IMG/VR virus record: IMGVR_UViG_3300046522_000747
Direction: 5' to 3' (one strand)
DNA length: 63,704 nt
Source: an uncultured virus (IMG/VR IMGVR_UViG_3300046522_000747)
Lineage: Duplodnaviria; Heunggongvirae; Uroviricota; Caudoviricetes
Below the pieces are notes generated by a model. The model had not been told where the DNA came from, made no database searches, and saw only the letters and a program-made list of their open reading frames with translations. The translations under genes were made by a program, and so were the position numbers. Of this stretch, positions 5,443-53,407 are shown in pieces. The stretch's first letter is position 1; each line of letters opens with the position of its first letter.

Positions 5443-7042
<1,600 letters not shown>

Positions 7043-8355: not shown

Positions 8356-8892
8356 TTAGTAGCTCATTCCTGCGGCCATCGCCATCTCTTTGTCTTTTCG
8401 AATCAGGAAATCGCGAGCCACTGTCGTGCATTTTCCAAGCAGATTGAGCTTTTTACCTCTCCATTGCGCCGGATCGAAAATTCTCGGGTCATTCTCATCT
8501 CTGCCTGCACCCCAGGTGTCGTCGTATTTTGAGGCTTCCACCAGGATTGTTCCGACTGTTGAAATCAGCAGATCTTTAAGGTCTTTGTGTTGTGAATATT
8601 TAGCGATCAGGCCTGCCGTCACGATCCGCTCTCTTTTAGCGATCCAGACTTCCTCCACAAATGGGCTGACCTGTTTACCCAAGTCTTTTTGTCTTTGCTG
8701 ACACCTTGGGCCTGTTGTCTCCAAAATTTTCTGTGCGGTAACAGTGTCTCCAAATAGCATGGCCTTGCTGTACATCATGTACTGTTCCATGCAATTGAAG
8801 GTAATGTTTTTTACTTTAAAATCACGCAAATACCAATTTGAAAACGCGTCTTGAGCCGAGAAAAATAGAGTGAATCCATTAGCTATTTTCAT
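8356..8892 (-). CDS. NADAR (YbiA-like) family hydrolase
   Basis: FSNWY, EQYMMYSKAMLFGD, LVEASKYDDTWGAG and WRG..NLLGK motifs. Confidence 0.9.
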   Translation of the reverse strand: MKIANGFTLFFSAQDAFSNWYLRDFKVKNITFNCMEQYMMYSKAMLFGDTVTAQKILETTGPRCQQRQKDLGKQVSPFVEEVWIAKRERIVTAGLIAKYSQHKDLKDLLISTVGTILVEASKYDDTWGAGRDENDPRIFDPAQWRGKKLNLLGKCTTVARDFLIRKDKEMAMAAGMSY

Positions 8893-10465: not shown

Positions 10466-11320
10466 TTACGCCGCGAGGTCTTCAAAGTCCAACCCCAACT
10501 CCTCCAGGCGATCCTGAAGTTTCCCCGTCGCGTCCTTGAGGATCTGACGGCAGCGTTCGCGGGAGATGTTCAACTGACGGCCCAGGTCGGCACAGGTGGT
10601 TTCCTCACGGCCATCGAAGCCGTAGTAGTTCAAAACGATGAACTTCTCACGGTCGTTGAGGCTTGCAATGATGTTTGTGATCATTTCGGAAGTGTCCTTT
10701 TCTTCAATATCATTCAACGGGTTGCAGTTGTCTTCCAGAAAACTGACAAAACTTTTGCTTTCCGAATCATCGTCATCGACAGACGCGTCGAGTGAAAGAC
10801 TGAACTGGACGGCTTCTGTGAGCTTGCGTACCGACGACTCATCAATATCGAGTAGCTTGGCAACTTCATGGTCAAAAACATCGCGATTGAGCTGCTGCTC
10901 CAATTTTCGTCTGGTGCGCACTACCTTGTGGGCGGCTTTTACGACGTGGGTCGGAATATGCACCGCTTTGTTTTTGATCAGCATCTCTTCGATTTTGGTT
11001 CGAATCCAGCGATCTGCATAAGTGCTGAAAGCAAAGTTCAGCTCTGGGTCAAATTTGTCTACGGCTGTCAGCAGCCCTTCGTTGCCAGCAGCGACCAGCT
11101 CCTCGTATTGAACACCCGACTTGAGGTAGGCTTTGGCAATGTGCATGACCAATCGCAGGTTGCGTTCAACCATACGAGAGCGCGCTCGCATGTCGCCGTT
11201 GCGGGCCAGTCGCGCCAGCGCAATCATCTCATCGTGAGGGATAACGTCGAGTTTCTGAACCTCGTTTTTGTAGACGGAGAAGGAACGGGCTTCTTCAGAA
11301 AATTTCTGTGCTACTGACAT
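10466..11320 (-). CDS. RNA polymerase sigma-70 family factor (RpoS/RpoH-sized, no region 1.1)
   Basis: NLRLVMHIAK, GLLTAVDKFDPE..FSTYADRWIR (region 2), SLD, and ISRERCRQI (region 4). Confidence 0.92.
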   Translation of the reverse strand: MSVAQKFSEEARSFSVYKNEVQKLDVIPHDEMIALARLARNGDMRARSRMVERNLRLVMHIAKAYLKSGVQYEELVAAGNEGLLTAVDKFDPELNFAFSTYADRWIRTKIEEMLIKNKAVHIPTHVVKAAHKVVRTRRKLEQQLNRDVFDHEVAKLLDIDESSVRKLTEAVQFSLSLDASVDDDDSESKSFVSFLEDNCNPLNDIEEKDTSEMITNIIASLNDREKFIVLNYYGFDGREETTCADLGRQLNISRERCRQILKDATGKLQDRLEELGLDFEDLAA

Positions 11321-18635: not shown

Positions 18636-20303
18636 TTAGCGGCGAGCAGCAATTTCAGCGAGGATTTTCGCCTTTAGCTCAGGATCGGCTTCCACTTTTG
18701 CAATCACGGCAGGTTTACCACGACCAATGCCTTTTTCTTCGTACATCGTCCAGGCCCGAGCTTGGGTGAACACGCCCGTGCTGAATGCGTCAATCATCCA
18801 TTGTGGCTCACCGCCTTCTGGTAGCACTGGCGCTACGTAGGGCGTTTTCACCGCATCTACCACTGCCGCAGCCGCGCTTGGCGGACTCACCGCTTGCTGA
18901 GTATCGATTCGTTCAACAACAGGTTCTGCTGCAAACGAATTGTGTTGCGGCTCGACAGCGAGAGGAGCATTCACTGCAACTGGCTCTTCAATCAGTGGCT
19001 CATCGTCAAAGGAGCTGAACTGAATGTCGCCTTTAGCCGGTTCGAAAGGATCTTTGACCACCGGGGATTCGGAGCTGCCGTGAGACTGAAGGCCGGTCTC
19101 TCCGCCTTCTTCAGAAAAGTCCCCATAAAACGCAGGATCTTTCACCAGAGATACAGGTGGCGTGGTCTTTTGGTAAGGCTCCACAACCAGCTTGGTGGAG
19201 ACCGACTCAACCTGAGGCGTAATCGACTTAGCCATCAGCGCATTGGACGTGGTGCGGCTGACAGGATCATTGGCGCTGGCCACTACGCGGTCAGGCATTT
19301 TCTGTCGGCGGATTTCAGCCTCGATCTCATCGGCGGCTTCAGTGTTTTCTGCCAGCCACTTTTGCGAGTTTGCCTTGCCTTGGCCGATTTTGCTGCCGTT
19401 GTAGGCGTACCATGCACCGGACTTTTCGATCAGACCAAGCTCTACGCCGAGGTCAACCAGTTCGCCGTACTTGTTGATACCCTTGCCATATTCGATCTGG
19501 AATTCAGCCTGTTTGAAGGGGGCAGCCACTTTGTTCTTGATGACCTTGACGCGAGTTTCGCTGCCGGTCACCTCTTCGCCCTCTTTAACTGCGCCTGTGC
19601 GGCGGATATCCAGGCGAACCGAGGCGTAAAACTTCAAGGCGTTACCACCGGTCGTGGTTTCTGGGCTGCCAAACATCACGCCGATCTTCATGCGGATCTG
19701 GTTGATGAAGATCACCAAAGTATTGGATGCTTTGATGTTACCCGTTAGCTTACGCAGAGCTTGGGACATCAGGCGAGCTTGCAGACCAACGTGCATGTCG
19801 CCCATTTCACCTTCAATTTCTGCTTTTGGCACCAGTGCCGCTACGGAGTCGATGATGAGAACGTCGATGGCGTTGGAGCGAACCAGCATGTCGGTGATTT
19901 CCAGGGCCTGCTCACCGGTATCAGGCTGCGACAGGACGAGATCATCGACGTTGACGCCCAACTTCGCGGCGTATTCAGGGTCGAGGGCGTGCTCAGCGTC
20001 CACAAAGGCGCAGGTGCCGCCGAGTTTCTGGCACTGAGCAATGACCGAAAGGGTTAGTGTCGTTTTGCCACTACTCTCCGGTCCGTAGATTTCAACGATG
20101 CGCCCTTTCGGCAGACCGCCGATCCCCAAGGCAATGTCGAGACCCAGCGAGCCAGTCGAAATCGACGGAATCATTTCACGAGGATTATCGCCCATGCGCA
20201 TAACAGCGCCTTTGCCGAATTGTCGCTCGATCTGCCCCAACGCGGCGGCGAGGGCTTTTGCCCTGTTTTCTGTCTTATCATTGCTCTGGCTGGCTTGGCT
20301 CAT
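18636..20303 (-). CDS. recA: recombinase A with ~220-aa C-terminal extension
   Basis: GPESSGKT Walker [35 protein letters not shown]. Confidence 0.97.
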
Positions 20304-23685: not shown

Positions 23686-24219
23686 TCAGAGTCTCCTGAT
23701 GAATTTCGCAGGAACGAAGTCGGTAAGCCAGACCCCGTTGTCGGCAATAAAAAACTCCGTCCCTTCTTTGACCATCTGGCGGGTGTCAATTTCCAGTACG
23801 ACCGGTTCCCTGCGCGGTCGGGCGGATGACAAGTCGCCGGACAGATGCACATGATGTCGCGTGCCTGGAATCAGGCCTTGCTTCATGATGGAATCAATAA
23901 AGCGCAATGTCGTGCCGTGGTACAGCGTCGGCGGCGGTGTTTTCTTGGTGTGATTGACTTTGACGGTCGGGGTTGAGTGGCCCTGTACACAACGAATGTA
24001 CTTTCCATCTTCAGAGAGGCCGTAACGCCCTTTTTCGTCCTCCTTCACGATCTGCATGAGCATTTCGTAGTCAAGTCCGGGACATTGCGGAGCCGCCTTT
24101 TCAATCAGCTCGCCAATATCAGCCCACGCGTCGTTTCCAAGCGCTAGCCCGATTTTTGCTGGGTCGTGCCGGAGAAAGTAGCACAGAGCAACGCTGATTT
24201 TTCTTAGTGATTTAGCCAT
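23686..24219 (-). CDS. kptA: RNA 2'-phosphotransferase (KptA/Tpt1)
   Basis: LRH, KGRY, IRCVQGHS, LYHGT, HVHLS and NGVWLT motifs. Confidence 0.92.
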   Translation of the reverse strand: MAKSLRKISVALCYFLRHDPAKIGLALGNDAWADIGELIEKAAPQCPGLDYEMLMQIVKEDEKGRYGLSEDGKYIRCVQGHSTPTVKVNHTKKTPPPTLYHGTTLRFIDSIMKQGLIPGTRHHVHLSGDLSSARPRREPVVLEIDTRQMVKEGTEFFIADNGVWLTDFVPAKFIRRL

Positions 24220-25137: not shown

Positions 25138-25761
25138 CTACGCGACGACTTTGAAAAGTGCGTTGCTTGGAAGGCGCTTGGAGCGTTGTGCTTGCAGCCA
25201 GTGCTTGCGGCAGACCGCAGTATACCGATCGTTACCGCCGACCTCGATTTGGCAGCCGCTGGTGACCACGTTGGCTTGTTGGTCGCAGCGCACATTCATC
25301 GTCGCCTTTTCCCCGCAGAAGCAGCGGCTCATTTCCAACTCCTTGAGCTGATCGGCCAACCCAAGCAGGTGTTGACTGCCTTCAAACAGGTTGCCAAACG
25401 CATCGGTACGAATGCCGTAGGCGGCAACATAGATGCCCTCAAGGTCGGCAATCTCGACCATTTGGCGAACCTGCAACGCGGTGCAGAATTGAGCTTCATC
25501 CACCATGACGGCAGTGTATTTGCCATTCTTGCGAGTGTTTTCCTTCAAAATATCAACGAGGCTATCAGTCTCGGTGAAGTTGATGCAGGTGCGGCAGAAG
25601 CCCATCCGGGACTTGATGATACCCAGGCCGTCGCGGGTGTCTTTGATGGATTTGAGCAAAAGAACGCGCAGGCCGCGCTCTTCGTGGCTATGGGCAGACT
25701 GGAGCAGTTGTGCGCTCTTACCTGCGTTCATCGAGCCGTAGTGAAATGTCAGGCTGCCCAT
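25138..25761 (-). CDS. tdk: thymidine kinase
   Basis: YGSMNAGKS P-loop, VDEAQF, YGIRTD, zinc-binding cysteines, YTAVCRKH. Confidence 0.95.
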   Translation of the reverse strand: MGSLTFHYGSMNAGKSAQLLQSAHSHEERGLRVLLLKSIKDTRDGLGIIKSRMGFCRTCINFTETDSLVDILKENTRKNGKYTAVMVDEAQFCTALQVRQMVEIADLEGIYVAAYGIRTDAFGNLFEGSQHLLGLADQLKELEMSRCFCGEKATMNVRCDQQANVVTSGCQIEVGGNDRYTAVCRKHWLQAQRSKRLPSNALFKVVA

Positions 25762-27656: not shown

Positions 27657-28679
27657 TTAACTTCCGCCGCTATACATACCAATGCTAGTAGCGCCATTAG
27701 TGATGCTAACGTCATCAATAAATTTTATTTCAGCATCAAAGCCGGTACTTTCCATCTCCTTCACTGAGTGCTTACAGATGTTAAGCATTTGCGGTGTGAT
27801 CTTTGTGTCAACGTTAAAAACAACTGAATCAGGAGACATTCGTAGGACATTATTTACTGCCCGCTTAATGTCGATCTCTGTCGCCTCGGCCGAGATTGTC
27901 AATTTGCAAATACGCTGCTCATGCATTTTTTGGTGAATCACTCGTACCTGATTATTTTTTATCAGGGATAGCAACAGGTCATCGACCTTGGCACTCGATT
28001 TTTGTGGTTCATCACCAAGCATTCCAATCAGGCTTTCGATTGCCTCCTTGCCTGAACTTGAATCCTTAGTGAGGATCACCTTATGGCCATTTTTTACCAT
28101 TAGTATTGCGGCGCGAACTGTTTCTTTGTCAAAATGCTGATCAATAACTACATAAAGCTGCTTAAATCTTGGCTTAGTTGCGTGTTCAAGAAGCTTGGCT
28201 GCCGTAATATTACCATTTTTTTGGAAATCGTTTTCGGCCTGACCGACATAAAAGAGGTTTATCTTGCAGTCGGTATTTTTATCATGCAGATCCTTGATAA
28301 GCGTAGTCATTGTATTGGTTTTGCCGCTCTGTGCGTGGCCGGATATTACGATGAGGGCGCCGTGTTCTCTTTTGGTGTCCAGCAAATTCCGCAATTCTTC
28401 CAGGTTGCGTTCTTTGCCTCTGAAAAGAAATTCTGCGTAAAATTGTTGATACGGTACGTTGCGACGAACAAAGTGCAGTTCGGTACAAATGGAATCGAGG
28501 GTTGGAGTTACCAGCGAGATTTGAGGGATAAATAGTGCGCTGGCCTGATCCCAATTATCATAGTTCTCTTCTTTCGCAACCAGCTCCAGGGATTGAGATA
28601 TGCTAATTTTTTGCCCCAGTACTTCTTTGATTGCAGAACGCAAACGGCTAGCACGGACTTTCAGTGGATCGTTTTTCAT
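27657..28679 (-). CDS. Glyoxalase_8-like N-domain fused to a PilT/VirB11-like P-loop ATPase
   Basis: LKVRASRLRSAI..ISISQSLELVAKEENYDNW N-domain; Walker A GHAQSGKT; GHKVILT; start reassigned to ATG 28679. Confidence 0.7.
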   Translation of the reverse strand: MKNDPLKVRASRLRSAIKEVLGQKISISQSLELVAKEENYDNWDQASALFIPQISLVTPTLDSICTELHFVRRNVPYQQFYAEFLFRGKERNLEELRNLLDTKREHGALIVISGHAQSGKTNTMTTLIKDLHDKNTDCKINLFYVGQAENDFQKNGNITAAKLLEHATKPRFKQLYVVIDQHFDKETVRAAILMVKNGHKVILTKDSSSGKEAIESLIGMLGDEPQKSSAKVDDLLLSLIKNNQVRVIHQKMHEQRICKLTISAEATEIDIKRAVNNVLRMSPDSVVFNVDTKITPQMLNICKHSVKEMESTGFDAEIKFIDDVSITNGATSIGMYSGGS

Positions 28680-28699
28680 TCGTTGAGCTTCCAAGTATT

Positions 28700-28878
28700 G
28701 CCAGACGCTGCCTTGGCAGCCTCGATGTCCTCGTTGTCGAAGTCCGGCAGTGGATGCCAACCGACTTTCGTATTCTTGACCCCTGTTCACCGTACCGTTT
28801 CCGGCGAGGACGACAGGCTGGGGAAGCCCTTGTTGCATACCACTGAAGACTTGCAGAAATCTTCAGTGGTATGCACAA
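28700..28878 (-). ncRNA. candidate structured leader/ncRNA
   Basis: 16-bp perfect hairpin at 28834-28875; long-range stem 28717-28733 with 28805-28820; CCG-GAAA-CGG tetraloop; promoter TTGACT-17-TATTGT at 28883-28911. Confidence 0.6.
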
Positions 28879-28944
28879 GACAACAATAATAAGCAAACAA
28901 CAAAAAGTCAATTAAATATGAAAGCTGAACTTGTGTGTTCAGCT

Positions 28945-29127
28945 TTATGGAAGGTATGGAAGCGTTTCGCTGTGCCCACAAGAAGTGCATTTAAGACAAC
29001 CTTTCAGCTTTGTAGGCCACTCTCCTTCATAGGTAATGCCTCTTGGGGCGCCAACAAGGGCGATGCCGATAGTCATCGCTCCGCTGCATCTTGGGCAATC
29101 GATTTTTGCATGAGCTGGTTCTGTCAT
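28945..29127 (-). CDS. small zinc-ribbon protein
   Basis: CPRC..CTSC. Confidence 0.65.
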   Translation of the reverse strand: MTEPAHAKIDCPRCSGAMTIGIALVGAPRGITYEGEWPTKLKGCLKCTSCGHSETLPYLP

Positions 29128-29208: not shown

Positions 29209-29919
29209 TCAATCGCCAGTTTTGATGCCAGCGATCCGGACAAAAAGGTTCATGATATCGATGAACAGGCTTGCCGCCGCATCCACAGCATTGTCCACGG
29301 TTTTCGGAATGCTGTTGGCGCGAGCCCAGTTAAAACCGATAGATCCGCAGAAAATTGCTGCGATGATCCAATCCATGATGCCAACCTTGACGTTGAACAC
29401 CAGTATTTGCACGACTTCCACGATCAGCGCGACAACCAGTGCCCAAAAAATGGCCGGGCCAATACTGAGGAAGAACTTCGGAAAGGCTGAGCCTAGAAAC
29501 ATCATCAGCAGCGTTACCAGCGCAGTGGTCTGGATCGCTGACTCAATGACCTCCGAGCTGTGCCCAGGCACAAACAAGACCATAACAAAGCCGATGGGGA
29601 TCACCACGAAGTTGTAGCCAATGAAGCTGACCAGAGGGTCTTCGGAGCGCGTGAACATCCAGATGCCCAGGAAGGCCGAAGCGAGGTAGCCGATCAGAAA
29701 AATCCATGGATTGATGCTTTTGATTGCTTCGAACGGGATGGTAGAAACCATGTACCAGTTGACCGCGAAACCCCAAAGCAGGACAGCGCCAATGATGCAA
29801 TTGAAGGCGGTGTTAGAAATGGTGTCCGAGCCTGTTCGTGTAAATGTGTCATTCTTAAACATGTAGAACCTCGATTGTACAAAATTTGATTTCGTTTTGA
29901 CTTGAGAAATCATGGTCAT
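29209..29919 (-). CDS. Bax inhibitor-1/YccA (US12-like) membrane protein
   Basis: seven hydrophobic segments; C-terminal AVDAAASLFIDIMNLFVRI. Confidence 0.8.
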   Translation of the reverse strand: MTMISQVKTKSNFVQSRFYMFKNDTFTRTGSDTISNTAFNCIIGAVLLWGFAVNWYMVSTIPFEAIKSINPWIFLIGYLASAFLGIWMFTRSEDPLVSFIGYNFVVIPIGFVMVLFVPGHSSEVIESAIQTTALVTLLMMFLGSAFPKFFLSIGPAIFWALVVALIVEVVQILVFNVKVGIMDWIIAAIFCGSIGFNWARANSIPKTVDNAVDAAASLFIDIMNLFVRIAGIKTGD

Positions 29920-38254: not shown

Positions 38255-39568
38255 ATGAAAGCCGTTTATCACGAGATAGATTTTGACGTGGACAAGATCA
38301 TTCGCGAAGGGCTTCCCTTCATGAGTGCTTTTTACTCAGATGGCGACGAATTGAACGAAGATGTACACGATCTTTTTTCATTTGCTGCCAATAGCTGCAA
38401 AGAAATGCCGATGTACACCATTAAGGAGTCCAGCTGCGATAGCGTTGCTGAAACCTTCAATGACGTGTACGCGATGATGATCGAAGCGGCAACCAAAGTC
38501 TTTCGTGACAAAAAGGCGCTGTATCACTTTTTTGATTGCGAGTTTTTGCGTACACATGGTAGTTATTTTGTGGAGTACGCGGCGCATACGTTCAGTGCCA
38601 GGGGTATGATTGGGCAGGCCATGTATGGTCGTTTTGATGCTGCGTTTGACCCGGTAACCGAGAAGGTCACTGGGATCTATGAATTCAATGGCGACACACC
38701 TGTCATGCTGTTCGATTCTGTGCATATTCAGAACGATTTGACGCTTCAGGTAACCGGCTCAAATTACGCTCAGTTCAACAATTATTACCCCATGATCACT
38801 GAGATGCTGGAAAAGCATCGTCTGGATTATTCCAAAAACTTTGCGGTGGTGTGTGACACTCGATTCGTCGAAGACATGGCCACTTGTGAAACATTGGCGC
38901 AAATTTTTGGTGAGCATGCGCAAAGCCATTTTCTGGATCTCAAGGATCTTGATTTCGACTATGTGAACAAACGTAAGCCGTTCGTTATTTCTGGTACTGA
39001 CACGTATCTGGATCACATTTTCGTGCTTTCTCCTTGGGAGGAGATGGTTGCAGCGTTTCCTAAGGCCTTCGAAAACTGGCGAGACTGGGTGGATAATGTC
39101 ACGTTCATGGAGCCAGCATGGCGGTGGTTTTTGTCGCATAAGGGCATGTTTGCCTACATCACCCACCTGATGGAGACTGACAAGGACTATTACGCTCGCT
39201 GGAAGCATGTGCCGGGACTGCGCACTTACCTGACTCCGGAACCTTTCCTGAGCAAGGGGGAGCCATACGTCTCCAAGCCTGTGCTGGGCCGACTGTCATC
39301 CAACATCCGCATTCATAATGGCCTGGGCGAGCTTGAGCACGAAAGTCAGGGCGGGTATGAAGACTGTGAGCGGGTGTACCAGGAATTTTGTCCACCTCAC
39401 CGTGTCGAGGGTCGCAATAACTTCATTCTTGGCATGTGGATGGTTTCAGAGGCTCGTACGTTGCTGTCCGGTCATGTTGGTCATGCGGCAACTATGTGTA
39501 TCCGTGAGTTTGATGCGCCAGTACTGGAACTGACTAACGAGCGTTTCATTCCTCACATTGTTATTTGA
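38255..39568 (+). CDS. glutathionylspermidine synthase family ATP-grasp protein (YgiC-like)
   Basis: YGRFD, YEFNGDTP, PWE, FMEPAW..SHKG, YVSKPVLGR, VYQEF, IRE..RFIPH. Confidence 0.88.
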   Translation: MKAVYHEIDFDVDKIIREGLPFMSAFYSDGDELNEDVHDLFSFAANSCKEMPMYTIKESSCDSVAETFNDVYAMMIEAATKVFRDKKALYHFFDCEFLRTHGSYFVEYAAHTFSARGMIGQAMYGRFDAAFDPVTEKVTGIYEFNGDTPVMLFDSVHIQNDLTLQVTGSNYAQFNNYYPMITEMLEKHRLDYSKNFAVVCDTRFVEDMATCETLAQIFGEHAQSHFLDLKDLDFDYVNKRKPFVISGTDTYLDHIFVLSPWEEMVAAFPKAFENWRDWVDNVTFMEPAWRWFLSHKGMFAYITHLMETDKDYYARWKHVPGLRTYLTPEPFLSKGEPYVSKPVLGRLSSNIRIHNGLGELEHESQGGYEDCERVYQEFCPPHRVEGRNNFILGMWMVSEARTLLSGHVGHAATMCIREFDAPVLELTNERFIPHIVI

Positions 39569-41757: not shown

Positions 41758-43491
41758 TTACATGCGTTCGATCACGTTGATGCCGAGAAGCGACAATCCT
41801 TCTTTCAGCGTCTTGCCGGTCATGGAAACGAGCGCAAGGCGATGCTCCAGGGTGAGATTGCTCACCTTGTCAGACAGGATCGGGCAATGCTCGTAGAAGG
41901 ATGAGAACAGGCTCGCGACTTCATAGAGGTAATTGCAAAGGACATGCGGCGTACCGTTTTTGGCGACTTCATTGAGGATATCACCAAAGCAGACCAACTT
42001 TTTGCCCAGATCAATCTCCTGTTCCTCGACCAGCTTGAAGTAAACCTGAGCGGCCATCTCGCGATTTGTTTTGCGGAAAATACCCGCGCAACGGGTGTAG
42101 GCGTAGAGCAGGTACGGGGCGGTGTTGCCTTCAAAGCTCAGCATCTGATCGAAGTCGAAGACATAATCGCTGGCGCGATGTTTCGAAAGATCAGCATATT
42201 TCACAGCTGCGACGCCCACGACCTTGGCGATTTCGACGGCCTCGGCATTATCCATATCTGGATTTTTCGACTGAACCAGCACCAACGCCCGATCCTGTGC
42301 TTCGTCGAGCAAATCAGAGAGCTTTATAGTGCCGCCATCACGGCTTCTAAACGGACGACCATCTTTACCATTCATGGTGCCGAACTCCATATGGGTCAGC
42401 TCGCAGAATGGGTGGCAAAGCTCTGCCTGTTGGGCAATTTTGAAAACCATTTCAAAATGCTGGCTCTGACGCTTATCAACAAAGTACAGCACGCGATTGG
42501 CGTGCAGATCATGACTGCGGTGTTCTATCGCAGCAAGATCGGTCGTTGAATACAAGTATCCGCCACCGGCCTTTTGAACAATCATCGGCAACGGTTCGCC
42601 TTCCTTGTTCTGGTAGCCATCCAGGAATACGCATTGGGCGCCCTCACTTTCGGAGAGCATCTTGGCGTCTCTGAGCGATTGCATGATGCCTGGAAGCTTC
42701 GGATTGTAGAAGCTCTCGCCTTTGACATCCTTCTCGGTGAGCTGCACGTTCAGGCGCTGATAGATGGCCTGACAGTGTGAAAGAGAGACATCACGGAATG
42801 CCTGCCATTTTTTCAGGGTTTCTGCGTCACCAGATTGCAGGGCGACGACCAATTCACGAGCGCGATCAGCAAACGCAGGGGATGAGTCAAAGCTCTTTTT
42901 GGAGGCAACATAGAAGGCTTCAAGATCCTTGAGGTCGGCGCCATCATCTTGGCTTTCGCTGAGTTCCATTTGTGCGAGCAGCATGCCGAATTGGGTGCCC
43001 CAGTCGCCCACATGGTTTTGCAGGATGACGGTGGAACCCAAGTAGCGAATAACGCGAGCGACCGAATCACCGAGGATGGTAGAGCGCAGATGACCTACGT
43101 GCATTTCCTTGGCGAGATTGGGGGAGGACAAGTCCACAACGACAGTGGTTGGCCAATTATGATCAAACACGCCCAGATGGTCTGAATCTTCGAGATCTTC
43201 GAGGAGATTCTGAACCATGGAAATATCGAGGGTAAAATTGATGAAGCCTGGGCCTGCAATCTCAACCTTGGAGAAGAAATCTCCCCGAGGCAGATTGTCC
43301 ACCAATATCTGCGCGAGTTCGCGAGGCTTCATTTGAAGTTGTGGTGCAAGTACCATGGCTGCATTAGTTGCGTAATCGCCATGAGATTTGTGTTTTGTTG
43401 CTTCAAGGACAACGCGGGATTTATCACATGCCGCAGTAATGGCAATGTGTTCCAATCCTTTCAGCAATAGATTATTTAGTTGTTCTTTCAT
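41758..43491 (-). CDS. argS: arginine--tRNA ligase
   Basis: SSPNLAKEMHVGHLRST (HIGH-type), GDWGTQFG, EGNTAPYLLYAY, C-terminal ERM. Confidence 0.97.
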   Translation of the reverse strand: MKEQLNNLLLKGLEHIAITAACDKSRVVLEATKHKSHGDYATNAAMVLAPQLQMKPRELAQILVDNLPRGDFFSKVEIAGPGFINFTLDISMVQNLLEDLEDSDHLGVFDHNWPTTVVVDLSSPNLAKEMHVGHLRSTILGDSVARVIRYLGSTVILQNHVGDWGTQFGMLLAQMELSESQDDGADLKDLEAFYVASKKSFDSSPAFADRARELVVALQSGDAETLKKWQAFRDVSLSHCQAIYQRLNVQLTEKDVKGESFYNPKLPGIMQSLRDAKMLSESEGAQCVFLDGYQNKEGEPLPMIVQKAGGGYLYSTTDLAAIEHRSHDLHANRVLYFVDKRQSQHFEMVFKIAQQAELCHPFCELTHMEFGTMNGKDGRPFRSRDGGTIKLSDLLDEAQDRALVLVQSKNPDMDNAEAVEIAKVVGVAAVKYADLSKHRASDYVFDFDQMLSFEGNTAPYLLYAYTRCAGIFRKTNREMAAQVYFKLVEEQEIDLGKKLVCFGDILNEVAKNGTPHVLCNYLYEVASLFSSFYEHCPILSDKVSNLTLEHRLALVSMTGKTLKEGLSLLGINVIERM

Positions 43492-45724: not shown

Positions 45725-46534
45725 TTATTTGAATTGTCGAGCCCATTTTACAACACCTGCCGCATCCTGGAGATGTGATAGCGCATCCGACAATTTCGGA
45801 AGTACAACATCAGAGGTCGTAGGAAGGAAGTGAATGCGCTCTTGAGCACGCAGGCTTGGTGGGAACAGATGGAAAACCAAGTTTTCTGCATCAGCCTGCG
45901 GGTCGATGTAAATCACTTCGCGATTGTTCACCAGGGCATTGATTATGAAATTCCACAGATACGGGAATTGCAGTGAGGTGCCGGTCACGATCAGCAAATC
46001 GCACGACGCCGCCGCAAGTACTGAGCGATCCAGGTGGTCATCTTTGAGCAATTCATTAAACATGACAACATCGGGCCGAATCACCGCGCCCTCGGGTTGT
46101 CCGCAACGATAGCATTTCGGAGGAATGCTTACTTCCTCATGCAAACCTAGTTGGTGTTGGGCTTTACAATGCATGCAGTAGTGTCGATGGTACGTGCCAT
46201 GCAGCTCAATGAGCTGATCATCATCAAGACCGGCCAGCCGAGACAGGCCGTCAACGTTCTGAGTGGCCTCAAGAAAAGATTCGCATTGATCAGCAATACG
46301 CTTGATTGCCAAGTGGGTGGTAGAAGGCTCTGCGGTTTTCAGCGCCAAGGTGAAGCGCAGCCAGTATTTCCAGATAAGCTCTGGCCTTTCTTGAAGCGTG
46401 TTGAGCGAAAGGAGCTGCTCTACCGGCATGCCGAATTCTTGTTCTATGTGCGTATAGCGTCCATCAGCGCCACGGTAGGTGCTGAGTCCGCTTCCGGTGC
46501 TGATTCCAGCCCCAGTGATCATCATTACTTTCAT
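45725..46534 (-). CDS. cobB: sirtuin-family NAD-dependent deacylase (CobB-like)
   Basis: TGAGISTGSG, TQNVDGL, ELHG, two CxxC motifs, RPDVVMF, GTSL. Confidence 0.88.
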   Translation of the reverse strand: MKVMMITGAGISTGSGLSTYRGADGRYTHIEQEFGMPVEQLLSLNTLQERPELIWKYWLRFTLALKTAEPSTTHLAIKRIADQCESFLEATQNVDGLSRLAGLDDDQLIELHGTYHRHYCMHCKAQHQLGLHEEVSIPPKCYRCGQPEGAVIRPDVVMFNELLKDDHLDRSVLAAASCDLLIVTGTSLQFPYLWNFIINALVNNREVIYIDPQADAENLVFHLFPPSLRAQERIHFLPTTSDVVLPKLSDALSHLQDAAGVVKWARQFK

Positions 46535-52747: not shown

Positions 52748-53407
52748 TCACAGAGGTGGTACTTGGGTTCTTTGCACTTCATGGCGTAGCGCATCATAGA
52801 TTCGCTGTGCGGTTGTCTTCCCCATGCCCTTGATTGCACAGAGATCAGCAATCGATGCGTTGAAAGCAGCCAGGGCGGAGCCGAAGTGATTCAACAGCAT
52901 GGCGGCGTTATTAGGCCCAACGCCAGCAAGGCCCTCTACCAGATACCGGGACATCAGATCCGATGTCTTCGGCTTCCCTGTACGGATCGGGACGACGTAA
53001 TCCAGCCCCTCTTGTAGATGGCGGGCCATGGTCGCAAGCATCATCGCCGTTTCTTGAGGATTTGCCAGCGTCACCAAGTTAATGCCTCTGATTGCTGTAA
53101 TGTACGAGATGGCGCCAGCAATGGCCTTGTGTTTCATATCTGAACGAGTTCTAAACACGTCACCCTCGATAAGAATCATTGGAGTGGCGTATTCCAGCTT
53201 CATTTTTTCTATTTGCTGAAAGAGGCGCTGGTCTTTTATGGACTGAACGAAGTCGATAGCTGATTTTCGCTCCACAACCGTATTCTCATGCAGTATGTAA
53301 TCACCTGACGAAAGTTCCTTTACCATCACCTCTATGCCTTCCATCGCCTTAAGCTGCTGGATCATAGTGGATTTGGTCTCTCTGCTATCGGCGACGATGA
53401 TTGCCAT
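52748..53407 (-). CDS. ERCC4/XPF-family nuclease with tandem HhH motifs
   Basis: DSRE, GDY, VERKS..DF..SI.D.RLFQQ, LIEG, GVGP and GMGK HhH motifs. Confidence 0.88.
   Translation of the reverse strand: MAIIVADSRETKSTMIQQLKAMEGIEVMVKELSSGDYILHENTVVERKSAIDFVQSIKDQRLFQQIEKMKLEYATPMILIEGDVFRTRSDMKHKAIAGAISYITAIRGINLVTLANPQETAMMLATMARHLQEGLDYVVPIRTGKPKTSDLMSRYLVEGLAGVGPNNAAMLLNHFGSALAAFNASIADLCAIKGMGKTTAQRIYDALRHEVQRTQVPPL

Follow-up and report, generated by a model that had tools for sequence, protein, structure and literature searches.

Comparative sequence evidence for a pseudoknotted leader RNA family that precedes genes opening with a small three-helix domain on mobile elements

The subject of this work is the leader of a minus-strand gene in a 63,704-nucleotide (nt) stretch of DNA from an uncultured virus (IMG/VR record IMGVR_UViG_3300046522_000747); this whole stretch is called the window throughout. 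Comparative analysis places positions 28829..28700 (-) of the window in a conserved, predicted pseudoknotted RNA family of ~130 nt that is new to Rfam 15. In the copies examined the leader is found only before genes whose predicted products open with one and the same 50-residue, three-helix domain (the N-domain), whatever follows it. Both the RNA family and its coupling to the domain are well supported by alignment, and recognition of the leader by the N-domain is put forward below as a tentative explanation.

Results

A conserved RNA family upstream of the gene

Loci were gathered through relatives of the window protein, 8 from genomes and 11 from metagenomes, and the upstream regions of the gathered genes align with the window leader, with compensatory changes visible by eye. 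For an alignment of 19 sequences (A3) RNAalifold predicted 23 pairs, 11 of them with compensatory changes. A pseudoknotted structure of our own is paired in 90.4% of cells of A3, with both sides changed in 20 of 30 pairs, while shifting the partners by 1-3 columns leaves at most 41.8% paired. A covariance model (R1), built from the nested part only of the A3-derived structure, finds a single copy in the window (120.2 bits, E 7e-38, over 28677..28836). Among 28 copies aligned to R1 (alignment A7), 93.6% of 827 cells are paired and 24 of the 30 pairs have changed on both sides; shuffles of A7 give 14.2 ± 1.8 such pairs and reach 24 in 0 of 500 trials, and sliding the partners leaves at most 39.6% paired. 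A first-pass annotation, made from the letters of the window, had proposed a structured leader and had staked the proposal on covarying structure upstream of homologues, which is what these 28 copies display. A7 was fitted to the nested helices, and the crossing helix H2, which is absent from the model, is nevertheless 97.9% paired with five of its seven pairs covarying. An all-against-all column scan for extra covarying pairs gave nothing above noise beyond the known helices.

Folding energy bears on the two parts of the leader differently. The 216-nt leader folds at -88.3 kcal/mol (z -5.5, equalled by 0 of 200 shuffles), a strong score that is due to the 5' hairpin alone: the 144-nt core without this hairpin has a z of -0.46, and 62 of 200 shuffles fold equally well. 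The evidence for the core is therefore comparative, not thermodynamic. G-U cells outnumber A-C cells in the aligned helices (43 vs 21) and the loop of H3 is of the GNRA type in 14 of 28 copies (hand count on the alignment), both of which fit an RNA of the sense strand.

The unpaired junctions of the core have entropies of 0.11 and 0.25 bits, against 1.4-1.6 bits for the variable parts of the leader and 1.57 bits for third codon positions of the adjacent N-domain. Within the N-domain the third positions contrast with the second (0.52 bits); its synonymous sites are saturated, so the domain is conserved as protein and not as part of the RNA. Taken together, the alignments show strong purifying selection on both the RNA and the N-domain, with neighbouring neutral sites saturated.

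Rfam 15 covariance models at gathering scores gave no match across the whole window, and at E ≤ 10 over 28500-29100 there were only chance matches of hairpin type (best 24 bits, cut-off 228.9). On 20 related loci none matched at the motif, the sole matches being 18 transfer RNAs (tRNAs) in one locus, L006.

The RNA precedes genes that open with the N-domain

R1 matches lie directly 5' of an N-domain gene in the window, as they do in all 18 protein-found loci with upstream sequence; one of these, L001, keeps the 3' half of the motif only, and L017, which has no upstream DNA, is outside the count. All ten Pseudomonas plasmid loci that were fetched carry the RNA, ending at the start codon of an N-domain gene. 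Searches that began from the RNA arrive at the same genes. The RNA-first search of whole genomes gave three more matches (44, 22 and 22 bits), all before N-domain-like genes. By blastn the RNA alone finds 33 plasmid records, by tblastn the domain finds 30, and RNA and domain matches are adjacent in the 27 plasmid records where the best sites are comparable. In pBASL58 a second copy, which the search with the RNA alone brought up, stands before a gene annotated 'glyoxalase superfamily protein'. The statement of the first-pass annotation that genes with this N-domain often carry similar leaders is borne out along each of these routes. Five plasmid records match the RNA without the protein, and in one, which was inspected, IS66 cuts the gene after ~32 codons.

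Related observations concern the integrity and number of these genes. IS66-family elements break the gene at two places and in two orientations in P. aeruginosa plasmids (L033:5004-7964, L044:2636-4296). In pPAC1.3a the IS66 cut after ~32 codons falls inside the N-domain, and four more plasmid records have the leader without a domain match; in pIHMA87 the gene ends after 561 nt, with an IS66 element ~100 nt downstream. Locus L005 (2851-4588) has two tandem genes for N-domain/PilT-like proteins, each with its own promoter-like site and leader (99.9 and 107.6 bits).

Searched with a profile of the N-domain, a library of 1.84 billion proteins yields 530 clusters (50% identity representatives) at E ≤ 1e-3. 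Of the best 150 of the 530, 136 have the domain within their first 18 residues; the remaining 14 may include over-extended gene calls of the sort seen in the 393-residue open reading frame (ORF) of the window described below. The first-pass annotation had also supposed that the domain is joined to a variable effector, and this is what the domain proteins look like: Pfam on 146 of them gives Glyoxalase_8 in 142, T2SSE in 45 and P-loop_TraG in 9, together with families seen in single proteins (VirD4-type coupling-protein families, the ClpX zinc finger, nucleoside deoxyribosyltransferases), and NCBIfam on other members gives weak TraC/VirB4 and TrbC similarities. In the leader-bearing copies examined, what follows the N-domain is a VirB11-, VirB4- or VirD4-like P-loop domain, or else the gene encodes a short glyoxalase-family protein (137 residues in one case).

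In the 28450-29000 region, contigs of other runs (X24, X8, X7 and X13) are ~92-95% identical to the window over leader and N-domain and then diverge from 28532-28534, and short contigs from other runs share just the 30-nt core 28786-28815. These single contigs weakly suggest that several relatives with swapped 3' parts occur in the same habitats. In the AT-rich genome G209 (L031:1200-1650) a P-loop gene whose product distantly resembles the N-domain proteins (20.5 bits for PF20066, under its cut-off) is preceded by a TTGACA-17-TATTCT site and by a leader of 150 nt in which CCCUUCC and GGAAGGG could pair over a long range; this leader may be a remote analogue of the motif.

Architecture of the leader

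The covariation pattern shows a predicted fold of two domains, separated by a variable region and locked together by the 7-base-pair (bp) loop-loop helix H2, with nearly invariant unpaired junctions (Table 1). H1 is reduced to four pairs in the window copy. An additional helix P1 (GGC/GCC), paired in 90.8% of cells with one covarying pair, is plausible.

The letters described in the first-pass annotation were all found in place, and its secondary structure is kept in parts, with H1, H4 and H5 missed. The CCG-GAAA-CGG hairpin, paired in every homologue, and the nearly invariant GGUGAA segment both carry over into the family. Its closing helix survives as GUCCUCG/CGAGGAC, which is H2; the adjoining CAGCCU/AGGCUG pairing is specific to the window and overlaps H6. 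The CUGC-caag-GCAG hairpin is conserved as H6, in a variable form. A stem of AAGUC..GACUU and GGCA..UGCC is weakly supported, being 73-78% paired and in competition with better supported helices. Two candidates tried on the alignment were rejected: the 'g' hairpin UUGGCA/UGCCAG (78% paired) and an outer stem CGAAGC/GCAUCG (73% paired), both of which compete with the better supported H4 and H5.

Table 1. Predicted features of the leader locus and other genes of the window
Feature	Position	Strand	Basis or remark
Bax1-I family membrane protein, further upstream gene	29209..29919	-	58 bits
Upstream ORF, 60 residues, four-cysteine zinc-ribbon	28945..29127	-	only weak matches
Terminator-like hairpin after zinc-ribbon ORF	28921..28946	-	sequence scan
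Sigma-70-like promoter TTGACT-17-TATTGT	28883..28911	-	9/12 in consensus scan
5' hairpin, ~18 bp, loop CUGC	28834..28875	-	RNA folding
Conserved pseudoknotted leader core, P1 + H1-H6	28700..28829	-	covariance model R1
Domain 1	28780..28824	-	H1 around junction AGCCUGUC, H2a, H3, then UACGGUGAA
H1	28824-28819 with 28785-28780	-	97.6% paired, 6/6 pairs covary
H2a GUCCUCG, 5' strand of loop-loop (pseudoknot) helix	28811-28805	-	partner 28733-28727
H3 hairpin CCG-GAAA-CGG	28804-28795	-	100% paired; third pair with four pair types
GGUGAA, unpaired, nearly invariant	28791-28786	-	0.25 bits over its 9-nt junction
Domain 2	28700..28748	-	H4 enclosing H5 (with H2b in loop) and H6
H4 GCCGGA/UCUGGC	28748-28743 with 28705-28700	-	97.0% paired, 5/6 covary
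H5 UCG/CGA	28740-28738 with 28724-28722	-	100% paired, 2/3 covary
H2b CGAGGAC, in loop of H5	28733-28727	-	
H6 GCUGC-CAAG-GCAGC	28720-28707	-	69% paired; variable, poorly aligning hairpin
Shine-Dalgarno-like GGAAG, 8 nt 5' of start codon	28688..28692	-	unpaired in consensus fold
N-domain, residues 1-50	28530..28679	-	front part of Pfam Glyoxalase_8 + AlphaFold2
Remaining 340-residue protein including stop: linker + ATPase-like domain + C-terminal alpha/beta	27657..28529	-	
Thioredoxin-reductase-like	5993-7039		
NADAR	8359-8892		
Sigma-70	10469-11320		
Tpt1/KptA	23689-24219		
Thymidine kinase	25141-25761		
Glutathionylspermidine-synthase-like	38255-39565		
Arginyl-tRNA synthetase	41761-43491		
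SIR2	45728-46534		
ERCC4	52751-53407		

Transcript start, accessory hairpins and ribosome-binding site

A terminator-like hairpin stands between the zinc-ribbon ORF and the promoter of the leader. Of 26 copies, 12 have a sigma-70 site (9/12 or better) that ends 0-2 nt before model position 1. At other offsets 0-2 copies have one, and with shuffled upstream sequence the mean is 0.07 and the maximum 2; the 12 promoter-bearing copies are related and so amount to fewer than 12 independent events. The predicted transcription start in many relatives is accordingly the first conserved GGC of the RNA. Between 27000 and 30000 of the window, promoter-like sites are not enriched (2 found, 3.7 ± 1.9 expected).

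The best promoters of the window copy and of L033 are placed 46-49 nt further upstream; in L033 it is a 10/12 site at the equivalent distance upstream of a similar 5' hairpin. The predicted start in the window is ~28876, at the foot of the 5' hairpin, and with the more distant promoter the long hairpin would be transcribed first in both loci. The first-pass annotation had described this hairpin as a perfect stem of 16 bp; it is real, and its ~18 bp include one U-G. A TGCATA..TATGCA foot is common to the hairpins of the window, L006, L014, L016, L019, L033 and L036, the Pseudomonas class has a different 5' hairpin, and about half of the loci have none, a distribution that marks the 5' hairpin as a lineage-specific accessory outside the predicted conserved core. 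In the Pseudomonas class (L012:2775-2850, L034, L002, L004, L010, L040) a 16-18-bp inverted repeat lies directly 5' of the core. Its 5' arm has a -35-like hexamer (TTGGCA or TCGGCA) and its 3' arm a -10-like TAnCAT, and between loci the arms change in a compensatory way and keep one G-T pair. This repeat may act as an RNA hairpin, as an operator or as a cruciform.

At the other end, the conserved structure stops ~20 nt before the start codon at 28679. Homologues have GGA or GGAG, unpaired, at the site of the window's GGAAG. A switch with a hidden ribosome-binding site was rejected as a conserved feature, 26 of the 28 copies being no better than shuffles; the outliers are L018 (p 0.04) and L008 (p 0.01), and the window copy reaches -0.4 kcal/mol.

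These features might suggest a constitutive role for the leader, as stabiliser or translation enhancer, giving prompt expression of an early gene once the mobile element has entered a new cell, with neither feedback nor sensing: the predicted 5' end of the transcript is where the structure starts, the ribosome-binding site is free, and the window has an extra perfect hairpin at its predicted 5' end. A 5' stem alone would do for such a role, however, and it leaves the invariant junctions, the two crossing long-range helices and the exclusive link to one domain unexplained. We regard it as improbable.

The gene start and the case for a DNA or coding element

The ORF of the window is open from an upstream ATG at 28838, which would give 393 residues with a 53-residue N-terminal extension read through the leader. 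Five full-length homologues (333-342 residues) align from residue 1 of the 340-residue form, and 21 of 26 related loci have an in-frame stop no more than 160 nt upstream of the start, inside the leader. On account of these lengths, alignments and stops the predicted gene start is ATG 28679, not 28838, and the extension, which the first-pass annotation had weighed as a reading that would undo its proposal, falls away. Public annotation places a 'hypothetical protein' coding sequence over the leader in L037:2820-3011 (NZ_CP097104.1) and in five further plasmid records; such calls are probably spurious, like the 53-residue extension.

On the evidence assembled here it is very improbable that the element functions at the DNA level, whether as single-strand promoter, recombination site or operator, or that it codes for the extension. 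Several of the carriers are conjugative-type elements with single-stranded DNA entry, the accessory hairpin of the Pseudomonas class has its promoter-like hexamers in opposite arms, and the longer ORF is open in the window, all as this alternative would have it. Against the coding version stand the in-frame stops, the common start of the homologues and the substitutions in the leader, which are compensatory rather than synonymous. As for DNA, an Frpo-type single-strand promoter, as found in the leading regions of plasmids, is a long hairpin whose stem rebuilds the -35 and -10 boxes on the transferred strand. Long promoter hairpins of this kind are unlike the crossing helices of the leader. What is found here instead are canonical double-strand promoters at a fixed distance upstream, crossing helices and, with GNRA loops common, a G-U bias toward the sense strand.

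The N-domain and the ATPase-like part of the window protein

The window protein matches Glyoxalase_8 (PF20066) at 27.8 bits (cut-off 23.7) through residues 4-49, equivalent to profile positions 9-53 of 143, and no match to the glyoxalase-type part of the profile (positions 54-143) was found in it. The N-domain thus corresponds to the front third of the profile only, and a predicted P-loop ATPase domain stands in place of the glyoxalase part. The public name of N-domain genes, 'glyoxalase superfamily protein', is on these matches misleading. AlphaFold2 models the N-domain as three helices (residues 5-21, 27-37 and 43-49) with a pLDDT of ~98 in the full model (81.3 overall) and 89 when modelled alone. 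Helix 1 is rich in arginine and lysine (LKxRAKRLR). Residues 1-50 are nearly invariant among homologues, whose whole proteins share ~40% identity. Compared by sequence with solved structures the N-domain has no relative (best E 0.66), and in the ESM Atlas it finds only Glyoxalase_8 clusters, at scores of 0.82-0.83 that are below a meaningful level.

A low-confidence, disordered-looking linker (~residues 55-75) connects the N-domain to an alpha/beta P-loop ATPase fold, modelled from ~residue 76, with an extra C-terminal alpha/beta part. Foldseek relates this fold to the ATPase domains of EpsE/GspE, PilB, PilT, PilU, VirB11 and DotB (E from 1.4e-6 for the best, over ~146 columns, to 1e-4). The T2SSE profile (PF00437, cut-off 24.9) scores 25.6 bits for the 340-residue form and 24.6 for the 393-residue ORF, and NCBIfam scores are far below their cut-offs (29.6 vs 319 bits). 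The window protein shares with the PilT/GspE/VirB11 ATPases the domain fold, the T2SSE score above cut-off and an intact Walker A motif (GHAQSGKT). It differs from them in being shorter and in lacking a PilT/VirB11-type N-terminal domain. It also departs from relatives at other loci, reading VVIDQ and LTKDS where these read IDEIRD and TIHA, which we take to be the Walker B acidic pair and the His box; with DQ in place of DE-x-RD and the His box missing, the catalytic signature of these ATPases is not found in the window protein. No PHROG family matches the protein, and among PADLOC defence families there is no convincing match, the best (mad8, 15-20 bits) being P-loop noise.

Carriers and genomic setting

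Carriers of the module are Pseudomonas plasmids, some of them from clinical P. aeruginosa isolates, megaplasmids (some of 0.25-1.2 Mb), ICE-like islands and the large uncultured mobile element of the window. Genes near related loci encode RadC, DUF4942, topoisomerase III, integrases, Arc-like repressors, an RNase T-type exonuclease, toxin-antitoxin pairs, a helicase and a methyltransferase. In an Agitococcus metagenome-assembled genome contig (L006:1-6135) the leader copy lies amid 18 tRNA genes in ~6 kb; such arrays are typical of very large phages or mobile elements.

The RNA model matched one of 151 sampled genomes of the family of genome G001, namely G001 itself, and PF20066 scored above cut-off in one of 400 sampled genomes of the class, again the genome at the centre of the sampling; with matches this rare in the sampled genomes, the module is sporadic. 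Searches of 50,697 phage records gave neither a DNA match nor, by tblastn, an N-domain match, IMG/VR viral contigs gave no relatives by protein patterns or RNA pattern, and 5,426 complete E. coli genomes gave no blastn match.

Besides the genes listed in Table 1 the window encodes a RecA homologue (18639-20303, minus strand) of 555 residues, in which RecA and RecA_C end at residue 334 and are followed by a C-terminal extension of ~220 residues. Most window ORFs are unmatched, and the 65 without a Pfam match include no phage structural family in PHROGs. The window is a mobile element of large size and would be a megaplasmid or a huge phage.

Discussion

The best reading of these data, which we hold tentatively, is that the N-domain binds the folded leader, resulting in autogenous control or a ribonucleoprotein. 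The N-domain would leave the ribosome first, flexibly linked to the rest of the protein, and would recognise the folded leader of its own mRNA. Binding beside the ribosome-binding site would then set the amount of protein, or would hold RNA and protein together as a ribonucleoprotein. As a portable module the pair would be joined by mobile elements to varied effectors, mostly cut-down look-alikes of type IV secretion and pilus ATPases.

Several observations weigh against such binding. The ribosome-binding site and start codon lie outside the conserved structure, and a ribosome-binding-site-hiding alternative hairpin (H4b-to-start, 28 copies compared with shuffles) reaches p ≤ 0.05 in only 2 of 28. 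By hand count the net charge of the N-domain is ~+1 in the window copy, helix 1 alone being basic, and the domain has no relative among RNA-binding folds (Foldseek best E 1.2; VIA best Z 4.6, to DUF1244). The RNA copies are kin, so the counts of co-occurrence are not counts of independent events, and co-occurrence could arise if leader and N-domain were inherited or recombined as one 5' module without any contact between them.

This last point leads to a different account, in which the leader senses some other thing (a small ligand, a host RNA-binding factor, the ribosome or RNA polymerase) and the N-domain has an unrelated job such as docking of the effector to a partner protein, the two travelling as a joint 5' module. 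The core does resemble riboswitch aptamers, with which it shares a length of ~130 nt, crossing helices, invariant junction nucleotides and a position in the 5' leader. The lack of an RNA-binding relative of the N-domain speaks for this account, and the contigs of other runs that diverge at the end of the N-domain fit module-wise exchange, weakly, as single contigs. The core differs from the aptamers in having no Rfam match and in that neither a terminator (by sequence scan of the window) nor a supported ribosome-binding-site-hiding pairing was found between RNA and gene as an expression platform. The genes downstream share a protein domain and not a metabolic pathway or transporter. Weak, distant RNA variants still precede distant N-domain variants, which points to long co-descent and not to recent hitch-hiking. 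A sensor of this kind is possible, if somewhat unlikely.

Among known systems, and by analogy, the element works most like an autoregulatory protein-binding leader, the class to which the binding of leader by N-domain would assign it. Ribosomal-protein operon leaders (the E. coli S15, L20 and S4 pseudoknots among them; overview in PMC3616713) are likewise structured, often pseudoknotted RNAs of the 5' untranslated region with their own gene product as proposed binder. As in those leaders, the RNA lies 5' of, and is conserved with, the gene of the proposed binder. The pseudoknots of ribosomal-protein leaders usually include the ribosome-binding site or start codon. In the present leader neither is part of the structure, and the candidate binder is portable, occurring on mobile elements in fusion with unrelated effectors.

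Type III toxin-antitoxin systems of the ToxIN type consist of tandem RNA repeats followed by a terminator and the gene of an endoribonuclease toxin. By comparison with these and with the non-coding RNAs of retron-type defence systems, the leader RNA or a processed fragment of it might be the cofactor or antidote of the effector's activity and not a regulator of its synthesis, keeping the ATPase-like effector inactive or guiding it. RNA and domain are paired strictly one to one on mobile elements, toxin-antitoxin, helicase, methyltransferase and integrase genes are nearby, and a flexible linker separates N-domain from effector. On the other hand the RNA is single-copy, once per gene and once in the window, without tandem repeats; no terminator parts it from the gene; the effectors are a 137-residue glyoxalase-family protein and degenerate P-loop domains, in the window a P-loop ATPase look-alike, and not nucleases; and PADLOC offers no convincing defence family. 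This role seems quite unlikely.

The STAXI and radC motifs of Weinberg et al. 2010 (PMC2864571) are also uncharacterised pseudoknotted motifs amid topoisomerase, integrase, antirestriction and radC genes, neighbourhoods that are typical of integrative or conjugative elements and comparable to those of L004 and L014. They differ from the leader in sequence and fold (RF01728 and RF01754 have no match in the window or in 20 loci), and STAXI is a tandem repeat, whereas the leader motif is single and tied to one domain. A literature search gave no mention of Glyoxalase_8 or PF20066, and nowhere in it are 'glyoxalase superfamily protein', plasmid and Pseudomonas combined. Neither 'glyoxalase' nor 'PilT' occurs in the main text of the motif surveys PMC5737381, PMC2864571 and PMC11109978, which list most of their motifs in supplements.

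If binding of the leader by the N-domain is taken a step further, leader and N-domain would form a dedicated, co-evolving recognition pair, a portable handle that gates or tethers any effector fused to it. We consider this extension unlikely. If true, it would represent a new class of ribonucleoprotein module in conflicts among plasmids, phages and hosts, in which cut-down VirB11-, VirB4- and VirD4-like effectors could jam the secretion or pilus machine of a rival, glyoxalase-type enzymes being further effectors of the module.

The leader adds a well-supported and complex predicted fold to the few bacterial RNAs in which long-range helices cross, and it comes with a clean clue to its partner. 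Should the N-domain bind it, the two would make a compact natural RNA-protein recognition module for structural study and for use as a tool, and the finding would explain a widespread and misnamed class of 'glyoxalase superfamily' genes. The domains fused to the N-domain look like parts of the motors of conjugation and of pili, and the module may thus bear on the competition or establishment of mobile elements.

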